Of a stretch of DNA of 6,059 nt, positions 1 through 6,059 are shown piece by piece. Under the pieces are notes generated by a model, which was given only the letters and a program-made list of their open reading frames with translations, was not told the origin of the DNA and did not search any database. Source of the DNA: a virus. The stretch lies in the IMG/VR virus record IMGVR_UViG_3300020029_000043, positions 1 through 6,059 of that record. One strand, written 5' to 3'. How positions within the stretch are numbered: position 1 is the stretch's first letter; every line of letters begins with the position of its first letter. The position numbers and the translations under genes were made by a program.

Positions 1-121
1 CCGCGAAGCAATAGCCAGCTGCGGTATGGTCGAGACGCCGGACATGGAGACGCCTTCGGAGCTACCAACAGGAAGCAATCGACTATAGCGGTCAGGATTC
101 GAAGGTATAACGGCCATCGGA
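1..121. repeat. Terminal redundancy (left copy), identical to 5939-6059; assembly overlap of a circular molecule
   Basis: Read base by base: ccgcgaagcaatagccagctgcggtatgg...cggccatcgga occurs at both ends in the same orientation. The capsid reading frame continues in phase across the junction. Confidence 0.97.
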
Positions 122-1050
122 TGGGCGACAAGGAACGACCCAAGCGTAGTAACAGTCGTAGCGGCAGCGCCAGTAGCGAATTGACTTGAAGGACCCGCGG
201 TAGACAGCGAAGTATTTCCGGGATAGATGGTAGAGACGGGGTAACCATCCTTAGATGCGGTAATCGTAGAACCAAGGTCTGAAAGCAATATCTGAGAAAA
301 GAGATTTCCTCTATTATATGTATTATTCGACGACGACACAGACGAAGGATAGAACTGACTCTCAAAATAAGCATCGAGGAATTCGAGATTTCCGAATCTT
401 TGCGAGAAAAAAGTCGGCATGGCACCGAACTGAAGAACATTATACGCGGCACCGGTGCTATTGGGGATAAAATACCAACTACTAGGCCAAGCGAAAGAAT
501 AGAGTCCCCACTGGGAATAACCGTAGTAATTGCGAACAATGTCCCAATAAGCAAGATAAGAATCAGCAGTGCACCAGCCTAAAGGATACGACAACTGGGC
601 CGATGTAAGATTAGCAGACACCGGAACATTACTCGAGGTCGAAACCGGTATAGACGAGGGAATAACACGCAACCAACGAAGCAGCGAGTTCGAATAAGGA
701 TAATTATCTGACGTAAATTCGTACGAACCAGTAGAAGAAGCGGCAATAAAATTCAAACTCAAATTGTTCATATCAAACTTACTACTGTTCGTTCGCATCT
801 CCGGATGGTACAGCTGCAAAGGCACCCAGAAACGGTGAAGTCGAATAGTATAAGGGTTAAACGTCGGAACAGCAAGAGGATTGCTACGAATGTCAATGCC
901 CTGCTCGATAGAGATGCGGTCACGGGCATTAATAAAATCGATTCGCACCGGATATAAAATACCCGGTGTGCATGTAAAAGCCTTACTCTCAGGAACATCA
1001 TAACGAGAGTAACCATTCACAGCGTGAGAGATGAAAGGTTGTTTTCCCAT
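1..1050 (-). CDS. VP1: Major capsid protein (Microviridae F/VP1 family), N-terminal 350 codons; continues across the circular junction into 5938-5198
   Basis: This ORF is missing from the supplied track because it runs off the window edge. I checked every plus-strand triplet in phase 1-3, 4-6 ... 1048-1050 and found no tta/cta/tca, so the minus frame is open from the ATG at 1050-1048 to base 1. Translation begins MGKQPFISHAVNGYSRYDVPESKAFTCTPGILYPVRIDFINARDRISIEQGIDIRSNPLAVPTFNPYTIRLHRFWVPLQLYHPEMR. This resembles the conserved N-terminal beta-strand region of microvirus capsid proteins. It joins in frame to the 5198-6055 ORF, since MAVIPSNP at 117-115 equals 6055-6053. Confidence 0.93.
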   Translation of the reverse strand, partial: MGKQPFISHAVNGYSRYDVPESKAFTCTPGILYPVRIDFINARDRISIEQGIDIRSNPLAVPTFNPYTIRLHRFWVPLQLYHPEMRTNSSKFDMNNLSLNFIAASSTGSYEFTSDNYPYSNSLLRWLRVIPSSIPVSTSSNVPVSANLTSAQLSYPLGWCTADSYLAYWDIVRNYYGYSQWGLYSFAWPSSWYFIPNSTGAAYNVLQFGAMPTFFSQRFGNLEFLDAYFESQFYPSSVSSSNNTYNRGNLFSQILLSDLGSTITASKDGYPVSTIYPGNTSLSTAGPSSQFATGAAATTVTTLGSFLVAHPMAVIPSNPDRYSRLLPVGSSEGVSMSGVSTIPQLAIASR

Positions 1051-1053
1051 AAA

Positions 1054-2145
1054 TTAAATATTTAGTTGAAGTTTATAATGATCCTGCCAAAATTGGAGAA
1101 TGTCCAAATCCAACCAGGCAGGGGGGTCAAAATCAGGCATCTTCCGAGAAGACGCGGAAAAGCGCATTATTTGCTTCTGCTCCCACGTATATGACACTCT
1201 ACTGGATACGGAGGAATTGAGGCCGAACCGCTCAACACACAAAGAAACAATACGCTTAACCAGAGGAGAATCGCTAAAATGTGCATAAGCGTTAGCAGCG
1301 GCAATCGAACGTACAACCTCGTCCTCCGATTTAAGATATTTAAGATAATATCGAGGGATCGCGTAATTGTAACTGATAGCCTTCTTAGAATCATAATAAG
1401 ACCACGACGAAACACGAGCAGAAGGACGAGGCATATAGCCAAGAAAATCACCAACGCCAGCAGATACGAATTTTCGCGTATAACGGCGATGTTGGAGGAG
1501 GCAAGATAAAGGTGTAAGATTTCCATCTACGGTAACATATTTATCCGAGATTTCCTCGGGATTGAATTGAATTTGTTTAGTAACATACTTTACGCAATAG
1601 CGAGCGCGCTTATGGGTAGCCTTTGCCAGCCACACAAAGCCAAGGTCTCGAACAGCAGAACGAATGGTGTTATAAAGAACATTTGTGCCAAACAGAAAGC
1701 CGTGAAAATGTAATCGAGGCTCATTTCCCATTTCGGGATGAGTCCCGAACTCCTGGAAAAAGGCGTGCTTGAACGAATGGCCGAGTTTATGCCGCAAACG
1801 CTCGTTAAAACGGCGGATGAACCGAGAGGGGTCGAGCAAGGCTTCATTATAATACTTAGGAGCAATAGTTATAGTAATAAAAATGGCCTGCTGATTATTG
1901 GCCTTGCAATAGGCAAGCTCGCGTTCCAAGCGGACAAACCAATCATTGCGCTGACGACGCAAGCAGTCTTCACACTTTCCGCAGGGAACCATCAACCACT
2001 GGCGGGCGATATCCCAAGGGCGAAGAGCTAAGGCTGATTTAGCAACATCAGAACCATTTCGGCAAGGATTCTTCTTGTCAAAATAGCGACGATTGCGTAT
2101 CCATATGGGAGATGAACAAGGCATTAGAGTAAACTTCGAAGACAA
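1054..2145 (-). CDS. VP4: Rolling-circle replication initiator (HUH endonuclease, Microviridae VP4 / phiX gpA-like)
   Basis: Motif I is IFITITIAP. The HUH motif PRLHFHGFLF has HFH encoded at 1710-1702 (cat ttt cac). The double-tyrosine motif YCVKYVTK is encoded at 1599-1576 and closely resembles phiX174 gpA YVAKYVNK. An upstream Cys cluster reads VPCGKCEDC. The maximal ORF starts at 2145, but the ATG at 2124 (MPCSSPIWIRN...) is probably the real start; see findings. Confidence 0.93.
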   Translation of the reverse strand: MSSKFTLMPCSSPIWIRNRRYFDKKNPCRNGSDVAKSALALRPWDIARQWLMVPCGKCEDCLRRQRNDWFVRLERELAYCKANNQQAIFITITIAPKYYNEALLDPSRFIRRFNERLRHKLGHSFKHAFFQEFGTHPEMGNEPRLHFHGFLFGTNVLYNTIRSAVRDLGFVWLAKATHKRARYCVKYVTKQIQFNPEEISDKYVTVDGNLTPLSCLLQHRRYTRKFVSAGVGDFLGYMPRPSARVSSWSYYDSKKAISYNYAIPRYYLKYLKSEDEVVRSIAAANAYAHFSDSPLVKRIVSLCVERFGLNSSVSSRVSYTWEQKQIMRFSASSRKMPDFDPPAWLDLDILQFWQDHYKLQLNI

Positions 2146-2324
2146 TCAAATTTAATGCTAGGGTGATCAAGACGACAACGAACAAGGTAATCATTCGCAG
2201 AGGGCTCGTCGGCAAACCAGGCAATAACAACTCGTTTCCGACCTCGGTATGCGCCAATAGAATAGCGATGAGGAATGCTATTGATAAAAGGGGAAAATCT
2301 AGGACGAAAATCAAAATAATCCAT
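2124..2324 (-). CDS. Hypothetical small basic protein (66 aa), translationally coupled to Rep
   Basis: I use the internal Met of track ORF 2124-2387, giving MDYFDFRPRFSPFINSIPHRYSIGAYRGRKRVVIAWFADEPSANDYLVRCRLDHPSIKFDCLRSLL. The ATG at 2324 is preceded by ATTAATT, the same context as the ORF107 start. Its TAA stop overlaps the Rep ATG as TAATG at 2126-2122. The longer form would run through the noncoding hairpin island. I recognise no family. Confidence 0.5.
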   Translation of the reverse strand: MDYFDFRPRFSPFINSIPHRYSIGAYRGRKRVVIAWFADEPSANDYLVRCRLDHPSIKFDCLRSLL

Positions 2325-2366
2325 AATTAATATGCTGGTTATTGAACTATTCGCAACTGGCGTAAG

Positions 2367-2407
2367 GACGCAGGACGACAGCCTCAACGGCTGGGACGCT
2401 GCGCGTC
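2367..2407 (-). other. Imperfect hairpin in the noncoding island
   Basis: gacgc (2367-2371) pairs with gcgtc (2403-2407), and cagcc pairs with ggctg around the loop tcaac. The internal region pairs only partially. It is much weaker than the neighbouring hairpin. Confidence 0.3.
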
Positions 2408-2455
2408 TTCGGCCTCCATGGCTTCACTCCGTTCGAGATATACCGGCAAAGCTGG

Positions 2456-2512
2456 TTGACTTACCAGGACCGCAGGAGAAAAGGGGGGGTCTCCTGCGGC
2501 CTGGTAAGTCAA
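2456..2512 (-). promoter_or_regulatory. Very strong hairpin: 23-bp stem (13 bp, one bulged A at 2469, then 10 bp) with a 10-nt loop aaaggggggg (C7TTT on the coding/virion strand); function unknown
   Basis: All 23 pairs checked by hand. ttgacttaccagg(a)ccgcaggaga at 2456-2479 pairs with tctcctgcggcctggtaagtcaa at 2490-2512. It lies in the 220-nt gap between ORF107 and ORF66. By my count 2361-2560 is about 59% G+C, versus roughly 37-48% in the coding stretches I sampled. Confidence 0.85.
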
Positions 2513-2545
2513 AGAACTTTTCCACCGAGCGGGCGGGTTACTACT

Positions 2546-2869
2546 CTAGTTCCCTTTCCCTTCTTCCTGCGACGTGCCTTCATCGGAAACCAAATCAAAG
2601 TCAAATATAAGAACGAGTGTATTATCGAAAAACTCGATACTGAAATTAGGATACGCACTCAAGGCGTCTACGAGACTGAAAACAGAGCAATGCTCAATAT
2701 AGGGAGAATCAGCAATACTAGAATGCTCTACGTAGGTAGAAATGGGAGTACGTTTAAGAGTGTCAATGGAGAGTGAAGAAAACTGTCCATTTTCAATGTA
2801 GCCTACCTGGACAAGGTCAATCTTGAAGGCAGGATTAATGCGACGGATAACAACGTGAATTTGTGTCAT
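2546..2869 (-). CDS. Hypothetical protein (107 aa), acidic C-terminal tail
   Basis: Complete ORF on the gene strand, not overlapped by any better ORF. The start context ATTAATTATG is identical to that of ORF66. The ATG at 2869 lies 2 nt after the TAA of ORF109 (2874-2872). I recognise no domain. Confidence 0.6.
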   Translation of the reverse strand: MTQIHVVIRRINPAFKIDLVQVGYIENGQFSSLSIDTLKRTPISTYVEHSSIADSPYIEHCSVFSLVDALSAYPNFSIEFFDNTLVLIFDFDLVSDEGTSQEEGKGN

Positions 2870-2871
2870 AA

Positions 2872-3201
2872 TTAATGGGGTTGAGTTAAAATTGAAAAAA
2901 AGTATCTACAGAAATCTGCCCAGCGCCGAGACGCGTCATGCCAGAATTCACGACCTTCGGGGGTCGAGTCAAAAAGAAAAGCGCCGGTCAGAAGAAAAGA
3001 GTAGTCCATAGCGGGGAATGTCGCATAAGCGCAAATACGTTGCCGAATAAGGTCGCGAACAGACGTGGTGACCTGTCTGGCTGCTGCGAGATTCCTCGTG
3101 AATTTACGATAAAGATGATTGCGGACTAACCACTCGACGAAAAGGTAGTCTAAAACATCAACTCGTAAATCAAACTGACTAAAAGATTTTTGTGATTTCA
3201 T
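2872..3201 (-). CDS. Hypothetical protein (109 aa), Arg/Trp-rich, likely helical
   Basis: Complete ORF on the gene strand, first gene after the only sizeable AT-rich intergenic spacer (3202-3281). It is tightly coupled to ORF107. I recognise no domain. Confidence 0.62.
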   Translation of the reverse strand: MKSQKSFSQFDLRVDVLDYLFVEWLVRNHLYRKFTRNLAAARQVTTSVRDLIRQRICAYATFPAMDYSFLLTGAFLFDSTPEGREFWHDASRRWADFCRYFFSILTQPH

Positions 3202-3227
3202 AATAGTGTGGTTATTGGTTTACGATG

Positions 3228-3258
3228 CAAACATACAACAAAGGGAATAAATGAGAAA
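3228..3258 (-). promoter_or_regulatory. Candidate Bacteroidota-type promoter (-7 TAnnTTTG box plus a -33-like TTTC)
   Basis: The minus strand reads TATGTTTG (plus caaacata, 3228-3235), an exact match to the Bacteroides -7 consensus TAnnTTTG. TTTC (plus gaaa, 3255-3258) lies 19 nt upstream, a 3/4 match to the -33 TTTG at the canonical spacing. The site sits about 27 nt upstream of the ORF109 ATG. This is a pattern match only. Confidence 0.3.
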
Positions 3259-3281
3259 GTTAAAAAGGTCGGAAAAAATGT

Positions 3282-4562
3282 TTAATTTCTCCCATGATAG
3301 GCGCGGCGGGCATAGGTAGCACCTTCTCTATCACCGTCAGGCCCGTAAAACTCTCTCAACTCCTCGTAACCTTCGGGACCGGCAGGACCTGCGGACTTGC
3401 GACCGACATAAGAAGCACCGGCGATACCTGCGGCAGTAGCAAAAGCCTTTGTAACATCATAAAACAGAGCATTCTTGTTCTTGCGGATGCTAAACCAGTT
3501 ACCGGACAGACTCTGACGACCTTCACCAAGCTCAAGGCCACGAAGATAAGAGTAATATTCGCGACCTGTAATCTCCTCAAATTCTCCAGTAGGCTCACCC
3601 TTCTCGTTGACCAGGGGAACCTTTACGGGGGTTTCCCAAGTGACTTCAAACATGCGTTGCATATCCTTCTGCTGAATATCAAGAATATCAGCATGAGAAC
3701 GGGACTCACGTGCAGAAGCTTTAGCGGCATCGGCGACAGCGCAAAGATAAGCAAGGTTGGCAGCAGCAGACTGTTCAAGGAGAGGAATCTCAGCATCATT
3801 TTCAGCACGAATACGTTTAGAACGCTCAACCTGTTCAGCATAAGCGGCCTGAATGCGCTGAAAATCATAGGTGGCAGCGAGATCTGCATACTTGTTGTAA
3901 GCCTCCTGATTGATAGCCAACTCGCCATAATAACGAGCAAGCGAAGACTGATTGCTAATGTTAGCTCGCTTTAGTTGCTTCTCGAGCTCGATAAGGGCCT
4001 GACCTTGTTCCTTGGTGGGCATCCTGTTACGAATATCGTCAGCTTGGGCGTTATCCAGATTAGCGGCAGCCTTATTGCGTTCAATAGTTGAATTAACACC
4101 CATGGCCTCGAGTGCGACACCGGCAACGGCAGAACCAGCGCCAGGAGGCAGAGGGCTCGAGAAATCAAAAGATCCACCAGAAGGACCAGAAGCGCCTACG
4201 GAGCCAGCAGAGCCGCCGGACATAGTAGCGTTAACGCCGACACCGGAAGAGCCAAGTACGGCCGCAGGGTTAACACCAGCTTTCAAATAACGGTCGAAAA
4301 CCTTCGAAGGGTCGTTGTAAGCATTCTCATAGTCGAACTGCTTTTGCCAGTTAGCATAATTAATCTCACCTTGTTTCTGCATCTGCTCAAGGGCATACTG
4401 CTGCTGCAGTTTCATCTGCTTCTGCTGATACTTCCACTGACGCTTCAAACTAGGCTTAAGAAGGCCAGAGGCGACCTGACCGCCGGCCGAAATAGCAGCG
4501 GCGCCGAGCATAGCACCGGTGGAAACAGGCTCAACGTAGGACTTGAAATCAATAAGTCTCAT
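3282..4562 (-). CDS. VP2: Minor capsid / DNA pilot protein (Microviridae VP2 / gpH-like), 426 aa
   Basis: It is the second-largest structural-size ORF. It has a Gly/Ala-rich hydrophobic N-terminus (GAMLGAAAISAGGQVASG) followed by a Gln/Lys-rich probable coiled coil. FDRYLKAGVNPAAVLG resembles the AG(L/V)NP motif seen in annotated microvirus VP2 proteins. A long Gly/Ser/Ala low-complexity tract and further helical heptad-like sequence follow. Confidence 0.8.
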   Translation of the reverse strand: MRLIDFKSYVEPVSTGAMLGAAAISAGGQVASGLLKPSLKRQWKYQQKQMKLQQQYALEQMQKQGEINYANWQKQFDYENAYNDPSKVFDRYLKAGVNPAAVLGSSGVGVNATMSGGSAGSVGASGPSGGSFDFSSPLPPGAGSAVAGVALEAMGVNSTIERNKAAANLDNAQADDIRNRMPTKEQGQALIELEKQLKRANISNQSSLARYYGELAINQEAYNKYADLAATYDFQRIQAAYAEQVERSKRIRAENDAEIPLLEQSAAANLAYLCAVADAAKASARESRSHADILDIQQKDMQRMFEVTWETPVKVPLVNEKGEPTGEFEEITGREYYSYLRGLELGEGRQSLSGNWFSIRKNKNALFYDVTKAFATAAGIAGASYVGRKSAGPAGPEGYEELREFYGPDGDREGATYARRAYHGRN

Positions 4563-4563
4563 A

Positions 4564-4755
4564 TTACGGAAGCGAAAAATTGTTCGAACGAATGATATAA
4601 TCTACACGGACGGTGTCGATGTGAACACCATTGCGGTAAACTTTAGCCTGTGCGGAACACGAGGACAAGAAAAAGGTAGCCAGCGCGGCAACGATAGACG
4701 AGACGAGCGTCCAAAACGCTTTCGACTTATAAAAGGGTTGTTTAATATCAGACAT
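4564..4755 (-). CDS. Small predicted lipoprotein (63-aa precursor, 31-aa mature lipopeptide)
   Basis: I use Met38 of track ORF 4564-4866, giving MSDIKQPFYKSKAFWTLVSSIVAALATFFLSSCSAQAKVYRNGVHIDTVRVDYIIRSNNFSLP. It has a Lys-containing n-region, a 16-residue hydrophobic core and an L-S-S-C lipobox. Cys33 is encoded at 4659-4657. Its TAA stop (4566-4564) lies 1 nt before the VP2 ATG. The 37 upstream codons of the long form are Arg-rich and coincide with a structured terminator-like element, and they would bury the signal peptide. Confidence 0.6.
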   Translation of the reverse strand: MSDIKQPFYKSKAFWTLVSSIVAALATFFLSSCSAQAKVYRNGVHIDTVRVDYIIRSNNFSLP

Positions 4756-4780
4756 AGGGATAAAATTTAGAGAACGATAG

Positions 4781-4858
4781 AAAAATGCGCGGCCTCTCCT
4801 GCAGTCGTTACCAATAACCTTCAGCAATTCACGAACTCTTGCAAAAGGGGCCCGCGCA
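4781..4858 (-). terminator. Long imperfect hairpin followed by T5 on the coding strand; candidate intrinsic terminator or structured cis element after the capsid-ORF98 block
   Basis: On the minus strand, tgcgcgg(g)ccccttttgc (plus 4858-4841) pairs with gcaggagaggccgcgca (plus 4802-4786). That gives 7 G/C-rich pairs, a 1-nt bulge, then 10 more positions with 1 mismatch and 2 G-T/G-U wobbles. TTTTT follows immediately (plus aaaaa, 4781-4785). The fold is better on the minus strand than on the plus strand, where the wobbles become A-C mismatches. Confidence 0.4.
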
Positions 4859-4888
4859 CGTAACATATATCGTCAAGTAAAGGATATA

Positions 4889-5185
4889 CTATTTTTCTTC
4901 AGAATTGGAAGATTTAGAAGTAGGCTTCGACCTATCCAGCTCTGAATCAATAAGTTCCTGTCCAACCTCGAGACCATCGAACTTATCCATGCGGGAAAAG
5001 GAGTTCGGGTCAAAATCAATCTCAGGGTTAAACTTTTCACCCTTATCAAAGTCAGCCGACTCTGCCACCACATCTGGACGACCAGGAAGAACATCGACAG
5101 AACCAGAACCATCGAGAACAGAAAGAATACGCTGACCGCGAGAAACATAGGCGGGGGCGTCTTCAAGAAGCCAATCAAGTGCCAT
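4889..5185 (-). CDS. Acidic 98-aa protein; possible scaffolding-type (VP3-like) protein
   Basis: It starts 12 nt after the capsid TAA, with an AT-rich start context (CATTAATTTTATG). I count 22 Asp/Glu against 11 Arg/Lys. Small acidic proteins next to the capsid gene serve as scaffolds in other microviruses. The functional call is inferred from position and composition only. Confidence 0.55.
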   Translation of the reverse strand: MALDWLLEDAPAYVSRGQRILSVLDGSGSVDVLPGRPDVVAESADFDKGEKFNPEIDFDPNSFSRMDKFDGLEVGQELIDSELDRSKPTSKSSNSEEK

Positions 5186-5197
5186 AAAATTAATGTA

Positions 5198-6059
5198 TTA
5201 ACGATTAGACAAACGGGTTGCAAACGTCTTATTTACTAAATTCTTCTTTTGAACAGAATACGAAAGATTGACAAAGAAGTTATCTTCCAGATTGGAGGCA
5301 AACGGAGAGTTTACTTGACCCATATCCACGAACAAAAGGGAATAATACTGATTATAGCTAGCCGACAGAACACGCTGTTGAACCCAATAAGAATAAAGAG
5401 GGATATTGTTAGAGGCTTTTTGGAATCGAGACAGTTGACCAAGAACTTCATCAAACGAGGACCGAAACTCATTGAAACACGGTTCGTAGGCCACAGCTTC
5501 GGAGGCTGAGGTGGTTCCGAATCCAAATTGGAATCCGGGAACATCCTGATATCCAATATCATTATAAATAGGATTAAAATAATCGGCACCAGTATAATGG
5601 AGATAGTCAGGGTAAACACCTGCCCAATAGTAGACGGGGCGAATGCTCAGCATATCAATCATATAGCCAGGTTCGCGGAAATAATAAGACTGACGACGAC
5701 CAAGACGATCGTTGAATGCGATAGCACCACCCTGCTGTCCAAGGGGACCATTAACGCCATCACTAGAGAAATTATTTTGTCCAGCCTGATTCATAACAAT
5801 CTGAACATTGACAGTCTGCGAAGCGCTAAAGAGAAGCTTAGGACGGTCTACATGCTCGATTTTAGAAGCAAAAAAGGTCTCCAACCAATCACTATAACGA
5901 GAACCCCCAGCGCCAAGCAGGTCCTTGTATTCCTGAAGCCGCGAAGCAATAGCCAGCTGCGGTATGGTCGAGACGCCGGACATGGAGACGCCTTCGGAGC
6001 TACCAACAGGAAGCAATCGACTATAGCGGTCAGGATTCGAAGGTATAACGGCCATCGGA
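5198..6059 (-). CDS. VP1: Major capsid protein (F/VP1 family), C-terminal part; 5939-6059 duplicates 1-121
   Basis: The track ORF 5198-6055 starts at an internal Met only because the window ends. The frame is open to the edge and is contiguous with 1-1050 on the circle. The full gene is 1050..1 plus 5938..5198, which is 1,791 nt or 596 aa plus a TAA stop. That size is typical for a non-Bullavirinae capsid protein. Confidence 0.93.
   Translation of the reverse strand, partial: PMAVIPSNPDRYSRLLPVGSSEGVSMSGVSTIPQLAIASRLQEYKDLLGAGGSRYSDWLETFFASKIEHVDRPKLLFSASQTVNVQIVMNQAGQNNFSSDGVNGPLGQQGGAIAFNDRLGRRQSYYFREPGYMIDMLSIRPVYYWAGVYPDYLHYTGADYFNPIYNDIGYQDVPGFQFGFGTTSASEAVAYEPCFNEFRSSFDEVLGQLSRFQKASNNIPLYSYWVQQRVLSASYNQYYSLLFVDMGQVNSPFASNLEDNFFVNLSYSVQKKNLVNKTFATRLSNR
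5939..6059. repeat. Terminal redundancy (right copy), identical to 1-121
   Basis: Same as the left copy. Position 5939 corresponds to position 1. Confidence 0.97.

Follow-up and report, generated by a model that had tools for sequence, protein, structure and literature searches.

A small putative lipoprotein gene beside the pilot-protein gene in a clade of gut microviruses: a candidate lysis or exclusion factor

Results

A putative lipoprotein gene directly upstream of VP2

We analyzed a stretch of viral DNA of 6,059 nucleotides (IMG/VR record IMGVR_UViG_3300020029_000043, positions 1 to 6,059; this whole stretch is called the window) with regard to a small open reading frame (ORF) located immediately upstream of VP2, the gene for the DNA pilot protein. 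A preliminary description, made from the nucleotide sequence, had placed this ORF at positions 4564-4755 and regarded its product as a miniature lipoprotein. The ORF is present there and lies on the minus strand, which the description had not given. It starts with ATG at 4755-4753 and ends with TAA at 4566-4564, and the product consists of 63 amino acids, MSDIKQPFYKSKAFWTLVSSIVAALATFFLSSCSAQAKVYRNGVHIDTVRVDYIIRSNNFSLP. The coordinates of its parts and of the other features are summarized in Table 1.

The basic n-region, hydrophobic core and LSSC lipobox noted in the preliminary description were all recognized. The n-region has a net charge of +2 (K5, K10, K12 and D3), the h-region is 20 residues long, uncharged and free of proline (mean Kyte-Doolittle hydropathy 1.72), and the lipobox agrees with PROSITE PS51257. 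Cleavage between Ser32 and Cys33 would leave a mature lipopeptide of 31 residues, the length proposed earlier. The surface-export signal of Bacteroidota lipoproteins consists of acidic residues after the Cys. Since the sequence has no acidic residues directly after Cys33, a periplasm-facing lipoprotein is predicted. The AlphaFold model of the 63-aa product (mean predicted local distance difference test score, pLDDT, 83.6) comprises a helix at residues 12-34 (pLDDT about 93), followed by a beta-hairpin with strands at residues 35-42 and 48-55. The gene overlaps neither VP2 nor P98, the ORF for an acidic 98-aa protein, and occupies its own frame. Its stop codon is separated by one nucleotide from the VP2 start codon at 4562 (TAA-t-ATG), as the preliminary description had read it. 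Inspection of the sequence before the lipoprotein ATG revealed no Shine-Dalgarno sequence, which fits Bacteroidota.

The full PS51257 rule combines the pattern with a Cys at position 15-35 and a Lys or Arg within the first seven residues. Among 153 candidate starts in the six frames of the window, the 63-aa ORF alone passed both the pattern and the rule. At least one ATG ORF passing the rule was obtained in 11.7% of mononucleotide shuffles of the window, and thus the lipobox pattern of a single sequence is not significant alone. As about 12% of shuffled genomes yield a similar ORF, the case rests on the comparison with relatives.

Coding evidence and the start codon

We searched a collection of 5.8 billion proteins and obtained 401 homologues of the lipoprotein ORF. 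In IMG/VR, 151 loci were found and 80 were kept, giving an alignment of 81 sequences. Across the 63 codons of these sequences, the proportions of synonymous (pS) and nonsynonymous (pN) differences were 0.61 and 0.079, and the ratio of nonsynonymous to synonymous change (dN/dS) was 0.07 in the gene frame versus 2.7 in the other two. Nucleotide diversity at the first, second and third codon positions was 0.10, 0.06 and 0.45. The low dN/dS in one frame only bears out the earlier statement that the ORF has a non-overlapping frame of its own. The lipobox Cys is found in 80 of the 80 close relatives. Judged by these comparisons, the region 4755..4564 is a real protein-coding gene under strong purifying selection.

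The first Met of the 63-aa form, which corresponds to Met38 of a 100-aa ORF opening at ATG 4866, is invariant and present in 80/80 IMG/VR relatives, and the residues directly before it vary. The preliminary description had considered a start at 4866 as an alternative. Translation from this ATG would produce a 100-aa protein with an Arg-rich N-terminal domain, in which the hydrophobic segment is internal. The 100-aa ORF is open in the window, and a length of 100 aa is given for 117 of the 120 top-ranking homologues in the database, which match it end to end at 83-95% identity. However, 8 of the 80 relatives have an in-frame stop within the 37 upstream codons, located in 7 of these between the Arg-rich part and Met38; a frameshift separates the upstream ATG from the frame of the gene in 6/80, and 4/80 carry insertions of 10-32 codons just before Met38. 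Diversity over the 37 upstream codons is equal at the three positions (0.098/0.103/0.113). Because dN/dS there is 0.54-0.82 in every frame and pS is low at 0.15, the upstream constraint acts on the nucleotides and not on a protein. ATG 4866 is moreover part of a motif whose conservation extends to genomes that lack the lipoprotein gene. The stops, frameshifts and insertions in relatives, together with the lack of codon periodicity, ruled out a start at 4866, whose probability we regard as negligible; the comparative data refute this alternative and place the start at 4755.

The database proteins P0001-P0120 carry the 100-aa form from the spurious ATG, which amounts to a systematic mis-annotation (117/120). 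Since the Cys then falls at position 70, the signal is hidden from lipoprotein predictors. This mis-annotation may be a reason why the lipoprotein family went unnoticed.

Conservation of the lipobox

An exhaustive phmmer search against 1.84 billion cluster representatives yielded 50 clusters at 50% identity, with no recognizably cellular protein among them. We aligned 40 diverged homologues, with identity to the window protein down to 36%. Cys33 was the sole invariant column of this alignment, and position -1 was G, A or S in 40/40 sequences. K12, F14, W15, A24, L25, F29, G43, H45, D47 and V49 were nearly invariant. The PS51257 pattern alone was passed by 35 of the 40 homologues, the full rule by 31. 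An invariant Cys preceded by a small residue is the constraint expected of substrates of Lgt and LspA. The earlier description of the product as a typical substrate of signal peptidase II is therefore well supported by the lipobox Cys being the only invariant residue of the family, and the ORF is very probably an expressed lipoprotein gene.

Signal peptide and mature peptide

Conservation was compared between the two parts of the precursor. The h-region and signal peptide showed 3.24 bits per column and a dN/dS of 0.047, against 2.37 bits per column and 0.085 for the mature peptide. Synonymous sites in the signal peptide are saturated, indicating that the constraint there is on the protein. 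Targeting alone does not require such conservation of the signal peptide sequence. The conservation suggests that the membrane segment has a sequence-specific target, activity or role, and the exchangeable mature peptide fits this suggestion. No conserved helical face was significant in the signal peptide (p = 0.25).

At least three mature peptides without relation to one another were found in this family. MG945453 (L086 3501-3704), MG945170 (L087 3694-3891) and the protein P0168 retain the signal peptide of the window family (KSKKFWTLVAAIVAALAAFF), but the mature part is replaced by an unrelated peptide of about 30 aa. In MG945453 and MG945170 this peptide has about 33 aa. One kind of replacement has the sequence TTRHYVVQSASSIKSGDTTRTTITYEQVGNFKRP, and a third kind is carried by P0168. 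In the five records of Dulem virus 210, a mature peptide of the MG945453 type stands behind a different signal peptide. PP511404 (L156 2392-2628) likewise has a lipobox ORF before VP2 with a mature peptide unrelated to that of the window. Since the same signal peptide is joined to unrelated mature peptides, the two parts are exchanged as separate modules. Neither this exchange nor the stronger conservation of the signal peptide had been noted in the preliminary description.

Similarity to known families

The 63-aa product had no significant match in Pfam, NCBIfam, PHROGs, the sequences of the PDB or, by Foldseek, the folds of the PDB. These searches covered the lipoprotein families of Pfam and PHROGs as well as the spanin and holin families of PHROGs. 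The window protein matched no Pfam family at E values up to 10, and Lysis_col, the Pfam family of the bacteriocin release proteins (BRP), was not among the Pfam families matched by any of the 40 homologues. The Pfam Entericidin family gave no match either, and Llp/Cor-type families gave no significant match in PHROGs, Pfam or NCBIfam. Weak matches to a Mycoplasma signal region, YgdI/YgdR, LPAM_1, a holin PHROG (0.003) and spanin PHROGs (0.05-0.24) fell on the signal or hydrophobic regions and were treated as compositional. PADLOC gave weak recurring matches of several members to the N-terminus of PDC-M02A, a candidate defence protein ("guilt by embedding"), with a best E of 6.7e-4; we take this as a lead only. 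As far as these searches reach, the lipoprotein belongs to no described family. The preliminary description had assigned the product to the format of BRPs. The likeness in size and architecture stands, but no relation in sequence or fold to BRP, entericidin, Llp, Cor or spanins was detected. A full-text literature search found no paper that links microviruses with a lipobox or a lipoprotein gene.

Distribution and gene context

Two arrangements of the gene were found among 154 loci. The order VP1-P98-LIP-VP2, where LIP is the lipoprotein gene, occurs in 138/154 loci, which form the window clade. The remaining 16/154 loci have the order VP2-...-LIP-(~130-aa gene)-Rep. In the window clade, the TAAtATG junction with VP2 has 1-nt spacing in 124 of 128 members and 2-nt spacing in 3. 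This tight junction makes the lipoprotein gene appear translationally coupled to VP2. The coupling to the pilot gene claimed in the preliminary description thus holds for the window clade but is clade-specific, as the second clade has the gene beside a dif-like site, with VP2 and Rep on either side of it. A LIP-VP2 fusion by frameshift or read-through was ruled out, since the gene is not adjacent to VP2 in that clade.

Synteny upstream of VP2 had been proposed earlier as a check. In the phage database, a small lipobox ORF lies just before VP2 in 45 of the 45 genomes whose VP1 is at least 63% identical to that of the window; 38 of these have a detectable homologue of the mature peptide, 2 are MG945453 and MG945170, and 5 are Dulem virus 210. 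The synteny does not extend further, the gene being absent from the database genomes with VP1 at 45-50% identity. By this distribution, the lipoprotein gene is core to the clade and not to the family.

We also scanned one genome per GTDB species (185,579 species genomes) with a 10-sequence alignment as the query. Two integrated copies were found, in Alistipes montrealensis kh20 and in an Alistipes metagenome-assembled genome, each within a microvirus prophage with Rep, VP1 and VP2. Both prophages have the second arrangement, and since they carry the gene, the host phylum is Bacteroidota. Second-clade genomes have, 70-110 nt upstream of the gene, a dif-like motif whose XerD arm (ATTATGTTAAAT) is exactly of the E. 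coli type. The motif also marks the left junction of the prophage in Alistipes montrealensis, directly after a host terminator. Its placement fits XerCD-mediated integration. A dif/XerCD site is absent from the window, where a single chance-level match lies inside Rep, and the scan of the 185,579 species genomes yielded no prophage copy of the window clade. On these grounds, the window clade looks lytic.

Genome organization

The window represents the complete circular genome of a microvirus, a single-stranded DNA phage, with a unit length of 5,938 nt. Positions 1-121 are an exact direct repeat of positions 5939-6059 (121 nt, terminal), which indicates that the window is circular and was assembled with an overlap. 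All genes are on the minus strand, and their order on the circle is Rep, VP1, P98, LIP, VP2, a 109-aa ORF, a 107-aa ORF and a 24-aa basic ORF, followed again by Rep. In a megablast search, the window was matched only in part, at 72-81% identity, by Microviridae from the faeces of pig, civet, rodent, lemur and tortoise. Pfam, PHROG and NCBIfam searches detected no peptidase, holin or endolysin among the window ORFs, and an Rfam search of the whole window returned nothing relevant.

Table 1 Positions of the lipoprotein gene, its parts and other features in the window and in related genomes.
Feature	Position	Strand	Evidence or remark
Lipoprotein precursor gene (LIP), 63 codons + TAA	4755..4564	minus	ORF, translation, dN/dS, homologues
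Predicted signal peptide, residues 1-32	4660..4755	minus	charge, hydropathy, AlphaFold helix
n-region MSDIKQPFYKSK	4720-4755	minus	
h-region AFWTLVSSIVAALATFFLSS	4660-4719	minus	
Lipobox L30-S31-S32-C33	4657..4668	minus	PROSITE PS51257; Cys33 codon tgt at 4657-4659
Mature lipopeptide, 31 aa (CSAQAKVYRNGVHIDTVRVDYIIRSNNFSLP)	4567..4659	minus	predicted beta-hairpin
Junction TAAtATG, lipoprotein stop to VP2 start	4560..4566	minus	1-nt spacer
VP2, DNA pilot protein gene, 426 aa	4562..3282	minus	PHROG 8689 "pilot protein for DNA ejection", E = 2.4e-9
Conserved non-coding element	4756..4888	minus	all three codon positions nearly invariant
Core of the element TACTTGACGATATATGTTACG	4859-4879	minus	contains spurious ATG 4864-4866 of the 100-aa ORF
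Acidic 98-aa ORF (P98)	5185..4889	minus	
VP1	start 1050, across the circle junction to 5198	minus	
Rep/VP4	2145..1054	minus	
J-like 24-aa basic ORF MKARRRKKGKGTRVVTRPLGGKVL	2583..2509	minus	unannotated; overlaps 3' end of the 107-aa ORF in another frame
Long forms of the lipoprotein ORF in relatives (examples)	L083 2986-3618; L084 7983-8591; L118, L121, L140		proteins P0125-P0164
dif-like motif in relatives	L084 7865-7900; also upstream of the gene in L088, L118, L121		

We scanned the window for promoter motifs. TAnnTTTG, the Bacteroides-type -7 motif, occurs on the minus strand at 3228-3235, 2602-2609, 2147-2154, 3742-3749 and 774-781. All five matches are on the coding strand, and their count is at chance level (5 vs 4.25 expected); one lies 27 nt upstream of the 109-aa ORF and another 19 nt upstream of the J-like ORF. 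The scan found no TAnnTTTG upstream of the lipoprotein gene, and there were no matches to a sigma-70-like promoter or a terminator at this gene.

Conserved non-coding element upstream of the gene

The element at 4756-4888 is more conserved than any coding region of the genome. Even distant relatives that have no lipoprotein gene (PQ007228, PQ006256 and MZ089787) contain its core, TACTTGACGATATATGTTACG, between the P98-like gene and VP2, with no more than 4 mismatches. The lipoprotein gene looks like an insertion next to a conserved element. The core shares ACTTGA(T/C) with the nick site of the phiX174 (+) origin, CAACTTG^ATATTAAT, and the element is possibly a Rep nick site or replication origin. 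It also contains an inverted repeat, GCGCGGGCC...GGCCGCGC, followed by a T-run. A role as a terminator or structured RNA was rejected, as the DNA fold was not significant (z = -1.76).

Long forms and a J-like basic ORF

Long forms of 172-223 aa account for about 30 of the 50 clusters obtained at 50% identity. They have no stop codon after the hairpin and continue for about 130 codons in an alternative frame of the downstream conserved ~130-aa gene. Their common end, ...RRGGRRGKGRPKxTKTIPLGGSHL, is situated directly before Rep, and no alignment between members was obtained for the middle 110 aa. When synonymous codons were resampled with the overlapped protein kept constant, 15-38% of the resamplings per genome left the long frame open by chance.

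The basic tail is present in 111/156 sequences. Long-form genomes have it without an ATG of its own, and where it is a separate ORF, it always starts with ATG. Such separate ORFs, found in the window clade and others, encode 24-32 aa with an invariant Met, and in the window clade the residues just before this Met vary. In size, in charge and in its C-terminal hydrophobic-GG-x-x-hydrophobic motif, the tail is similar to J, the DNA-packaging protein of phiX174, G4 and alpha3. The long ORF may fuse the lipoprotein module, a linker and a J-like tail in one putative product.

Discussion

A tentative role in lysis or release

We tentatively read the lipoprotein as a single-gene lysis or release effector similar to BRP/Kil, with confidence that falls somewhat short of even. 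This reading is based on the lack of any other lysis candidate in the genome, on a gene that is core in its clade and co-expressed with structural genes, and on a conserved signal peptide with a replaceable tail. It also draws on phiX174 E and the BRPs, in which the membrane segment is the functional part, and on the length of the mature peptide, whose 31 aa are close to the 28 aa of BRP (PMC2896534). The preliminary description was right that no lysis gene has been assigned in this kind of microvirus. A large survey of microviruses, in which overprinted genes were set aside, found lysis-associated peptidases only occasionally, and only in other families (PMC9239249).

The precursor would be inserted through Sec, diacylglycerol would be added to Cys33 by Lgt, and LspA would cleave between Ser32 and Cys33. 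Two products would result, namely a 31-residue lipid-anchored beta-hairpin on the periplasmic side and a free 32-residue signal peptide left in the inner membrane. The small lipoprotein would accumulate in the envelope until it is breached, as with the colicin lysis proteins (BRP/Kil) that are made together with their cargo. Located in the structural block VP1-P98-LIP-VP2 and coupled to VP2, the gene would let this build-up proceed in step with the virions and so act as a lysis timer.

A fuller proposal would be a lipoprotein-type single-gene lysis system of a kind not yet seen in any phage. Host lipoprotein maturation would be hijacked, the 31-aa lipidated hairpin and/or the 32-aa signal peptide would breach the Bacteroidota envelope, and in the sister clade the module would possibly be fused via an overprinted linker to a J-like peptide. 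We regard this combination as conceivable but doubtful.

Several points weigh against a lysis role. Similarity in sequence or fold to BRP, entericidin or any lysis family is lacking. In E. coli, quasi-lysis or release by BRPs involves envelope damage and activation of the outer-membrane phospholipase OMPLA; we know of no OMPLA-dependent mechanism in Bacteroidota and, to our knowledge, no phage relies on a lipoprotein as its sole means of lysis. Superinfection exclusion and lysogenic conversion are the functions of those phage lipoproteins that are known to stand alone. The gene is missing from sister genomes whose VP1 is 45-50% identical, and their hosts must be lysed by some other means. Its place in the second clade, at the head of the Rep block and at the prophage edge by the dif-like site, is typical for a conversion or exclusion gene. 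Finally, swapping of the mature peptide could equally fit changes in the specificity of an exclusion protein.

Alternative explanations

Superinfection exclusion or protection of progeny by a lipoprotein like T5 Llp or phi80 Cor (PMC9586334) is the main rival explanation, which we hold to be somewhat less likely than a role in lysis. Such a protein would bind the phage receptor or the envelope site of the VP2 DNA-delivery tube, and would block both further phage entry and the inactivation of progeny on debris or vesicles. Stand-alone small phage lipoproteins provide a precedent, and the gene is located between the capsid and pilot genes, a place that can be likened to that of llp, which adjoins the gene of the receptor-binding protein. 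In the temperate clade, it is the first gene beside the dif-like attachment site of two Alistipes prophages. The unrelated versions of the mature peptide, at least three in number, are as for a specificity determinant, and the lack of an acidic export signal after the Cys predicts a periplasm-facing protein like Llp. The recurring similarity to the N-terminus of the candidate defence protein PDC-M02A points in the same direction (best E = 6.7e-4), but it is marginal and covers the lipobox region. Exclusion leaves unexplained why the signal peptide is the most conserved part. PHROGs and Pfam gave no similarity to the Llp or Cor families, and the window clade, with neither a dif-like site nor a prophage copy, looks lytic.

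The conserved membrane segment could also be read as that of a bitopic, non-lipidated inner-membrane peptide, an E-like "protein antibiotic" that inhibits a membrane enzyme of envelope synthesis, with the small-residue-Cys motif serving the interaction with the enzyme and not LspA cleavage. The helix at residues 12-34 is the best-conserved segment, along its whole length, the mature part is replaceable, and some relatives fail the PROSITE rule, having E at -2 (LESC) or the Cys beyond position 35. A lone conserved transmembrane peptide with a tolerant tail is typical of the single-gene lysis proteins of small phages (PMC7693330). phiX174 E is of this type. However, the sole invariant residue is exactly the lipobox Cys, position -1 is limited to G/A/S in every homologue, the n-region and h-region have the geometry of a signal peptide, and the conservation shows no helical-face periodicity that would suggest a helix-helix interface (permutation p = 0.25), so that we find a peptide of this type improbable. 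The long forms raise a different question, namely whether the short lipoprotein is a stand-alone remnant of a longer envelope protein, represented in the sister clade by the ~190-aa ORF with the J-like tail. The module would then be the membrane anchor of an assembly, packaging or egress factor and not a lysis or exclusion protein as such. This agrees with the common basic end of the long forms, which make up about 30 of the 50 clusters, and with a tail that has no ATG of its own in their genomes. However, a frame that is open by chance in 15-38% of resamplings may lack selection, and the middle 110 aa are not alignable. In both clades, moreover, the short forms share one end point after the hairpin, and strong purifying selection acts on them by themselves. 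An exported protein with a DNA-binding tail is topologically implausible, and the hydrophobic stretch before the tail has only 11-16 aa. We therefore give such an origin little credence.

Implications

Under strong selection, a clade of gut microviruses keeps a stand-alone gene of 192 nt for a lipopeptide of predicted export in a genome of 5.9 kb. This candidate gene opens to direct experiment the question of host exit by microviruses outside the phiX174 group. If it acts in lysis, the abundant gut microviruses that do not belong to the phiX group would have their first lysis gene, and both a new class of small "protein antibiotic" and a new target in the Bacteroidota envelope would be defined. 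If it acts in exclusion, microviruses would have a first superinfection-exclusion factor, which would offer a handle on the receptor or entry route.

Comparison with known systems

The small bacterial lipopeptide toxins entericidin A and B are similarly made from a lipoprotein precursor of ~45-65 aa that gives rise to a short membrane-active lipopeptide. They differ in forming an amphipathic helix, whereas a beta-hairpin is predicted here, and the present gene is viral and not chromosomal. The spanins (Rz1 o-spanin and the u-spanin T1 gp11) are also small outer-membrane lipoproteins encoded by phages. Unlike them, the mature peptide is not proline-rich, the window form ends after the hairpin without a C-terminal transmembrane domain, and no endolysin, holin or i-spanin partner was found among the window ORFs. 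The long-form relatives are superficially similar to u-spanins, with an N-terminal lipobox and a C-terminal hydrophobic stretch followed by the basic end. A reading of the long forms as u-spanins was rejected, because the hydrophobic stretch has only 11-16 aa and there is no endolysin.

T5 Llp and the Cor proteins of phi80, T1 and N15 are stand-alone small phage lipoproteins like the present one, are predicted to face the periplasm from the outer membrane, and are encoded near entry or recognition genes. They show no sequence similarity to it, and here conservation is stronger in the signal peptide than in the mature part. The mature part of Llp has ~61 aa, and the mature peptide here is about half as long. 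With phiX174 E and other single-gene lysis proteins, the gene has in common a tiny phage genome without an endolysin and a product whose conserved membrane segment at the N-terminus precedes a tail that is tolerant and replaceable. E differs in being overprinted inside gene D and in not being a lipoprotein, whereas the present gene has its own frame and an invariant lipobox, and there is no homology between them. The hallmarks of E-type amurins are overprinting and an MraY-inhibiting transmembrane domain with a conserved Pro; they were likewise not found, and the h-region has no Pro. The single-gene lysis genes of small phages are lineage-specific and evolve repeatedly (PMC7693330).

The BRP/Kil/Cel proteins (Pfam Lysis_col) differ from the window protein in having no sequence similarity to it and a signal peptide of 19 aa versus 32 here. 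The genetic setting also differs, the present gene belonging to a phage and not a plasmid, with no SOS or colicin operon and with a host in Bacteroidota. The two are alike in being tiny lipoprotein precursors with a mature part of ~30 aa (28 in BRP, 31 here), encoded and expressed alongside a cargo that leaves the cell. BRPs are lipoproteins made from a precursor of 47 aa, with a 19-aa signal peptide and a 28-aa mature part, and their overexpression is lethal (PMC2896534). According to papers cited in that work, the BRP signal peptide is stable and itself lethal, and the mature lipopeptide and the stable signal peptide both contribute to killing (PMC2896534 and references therein). A stable, toxic signal peptide of this kind would explain the conservation of the signal peptide in the present family.

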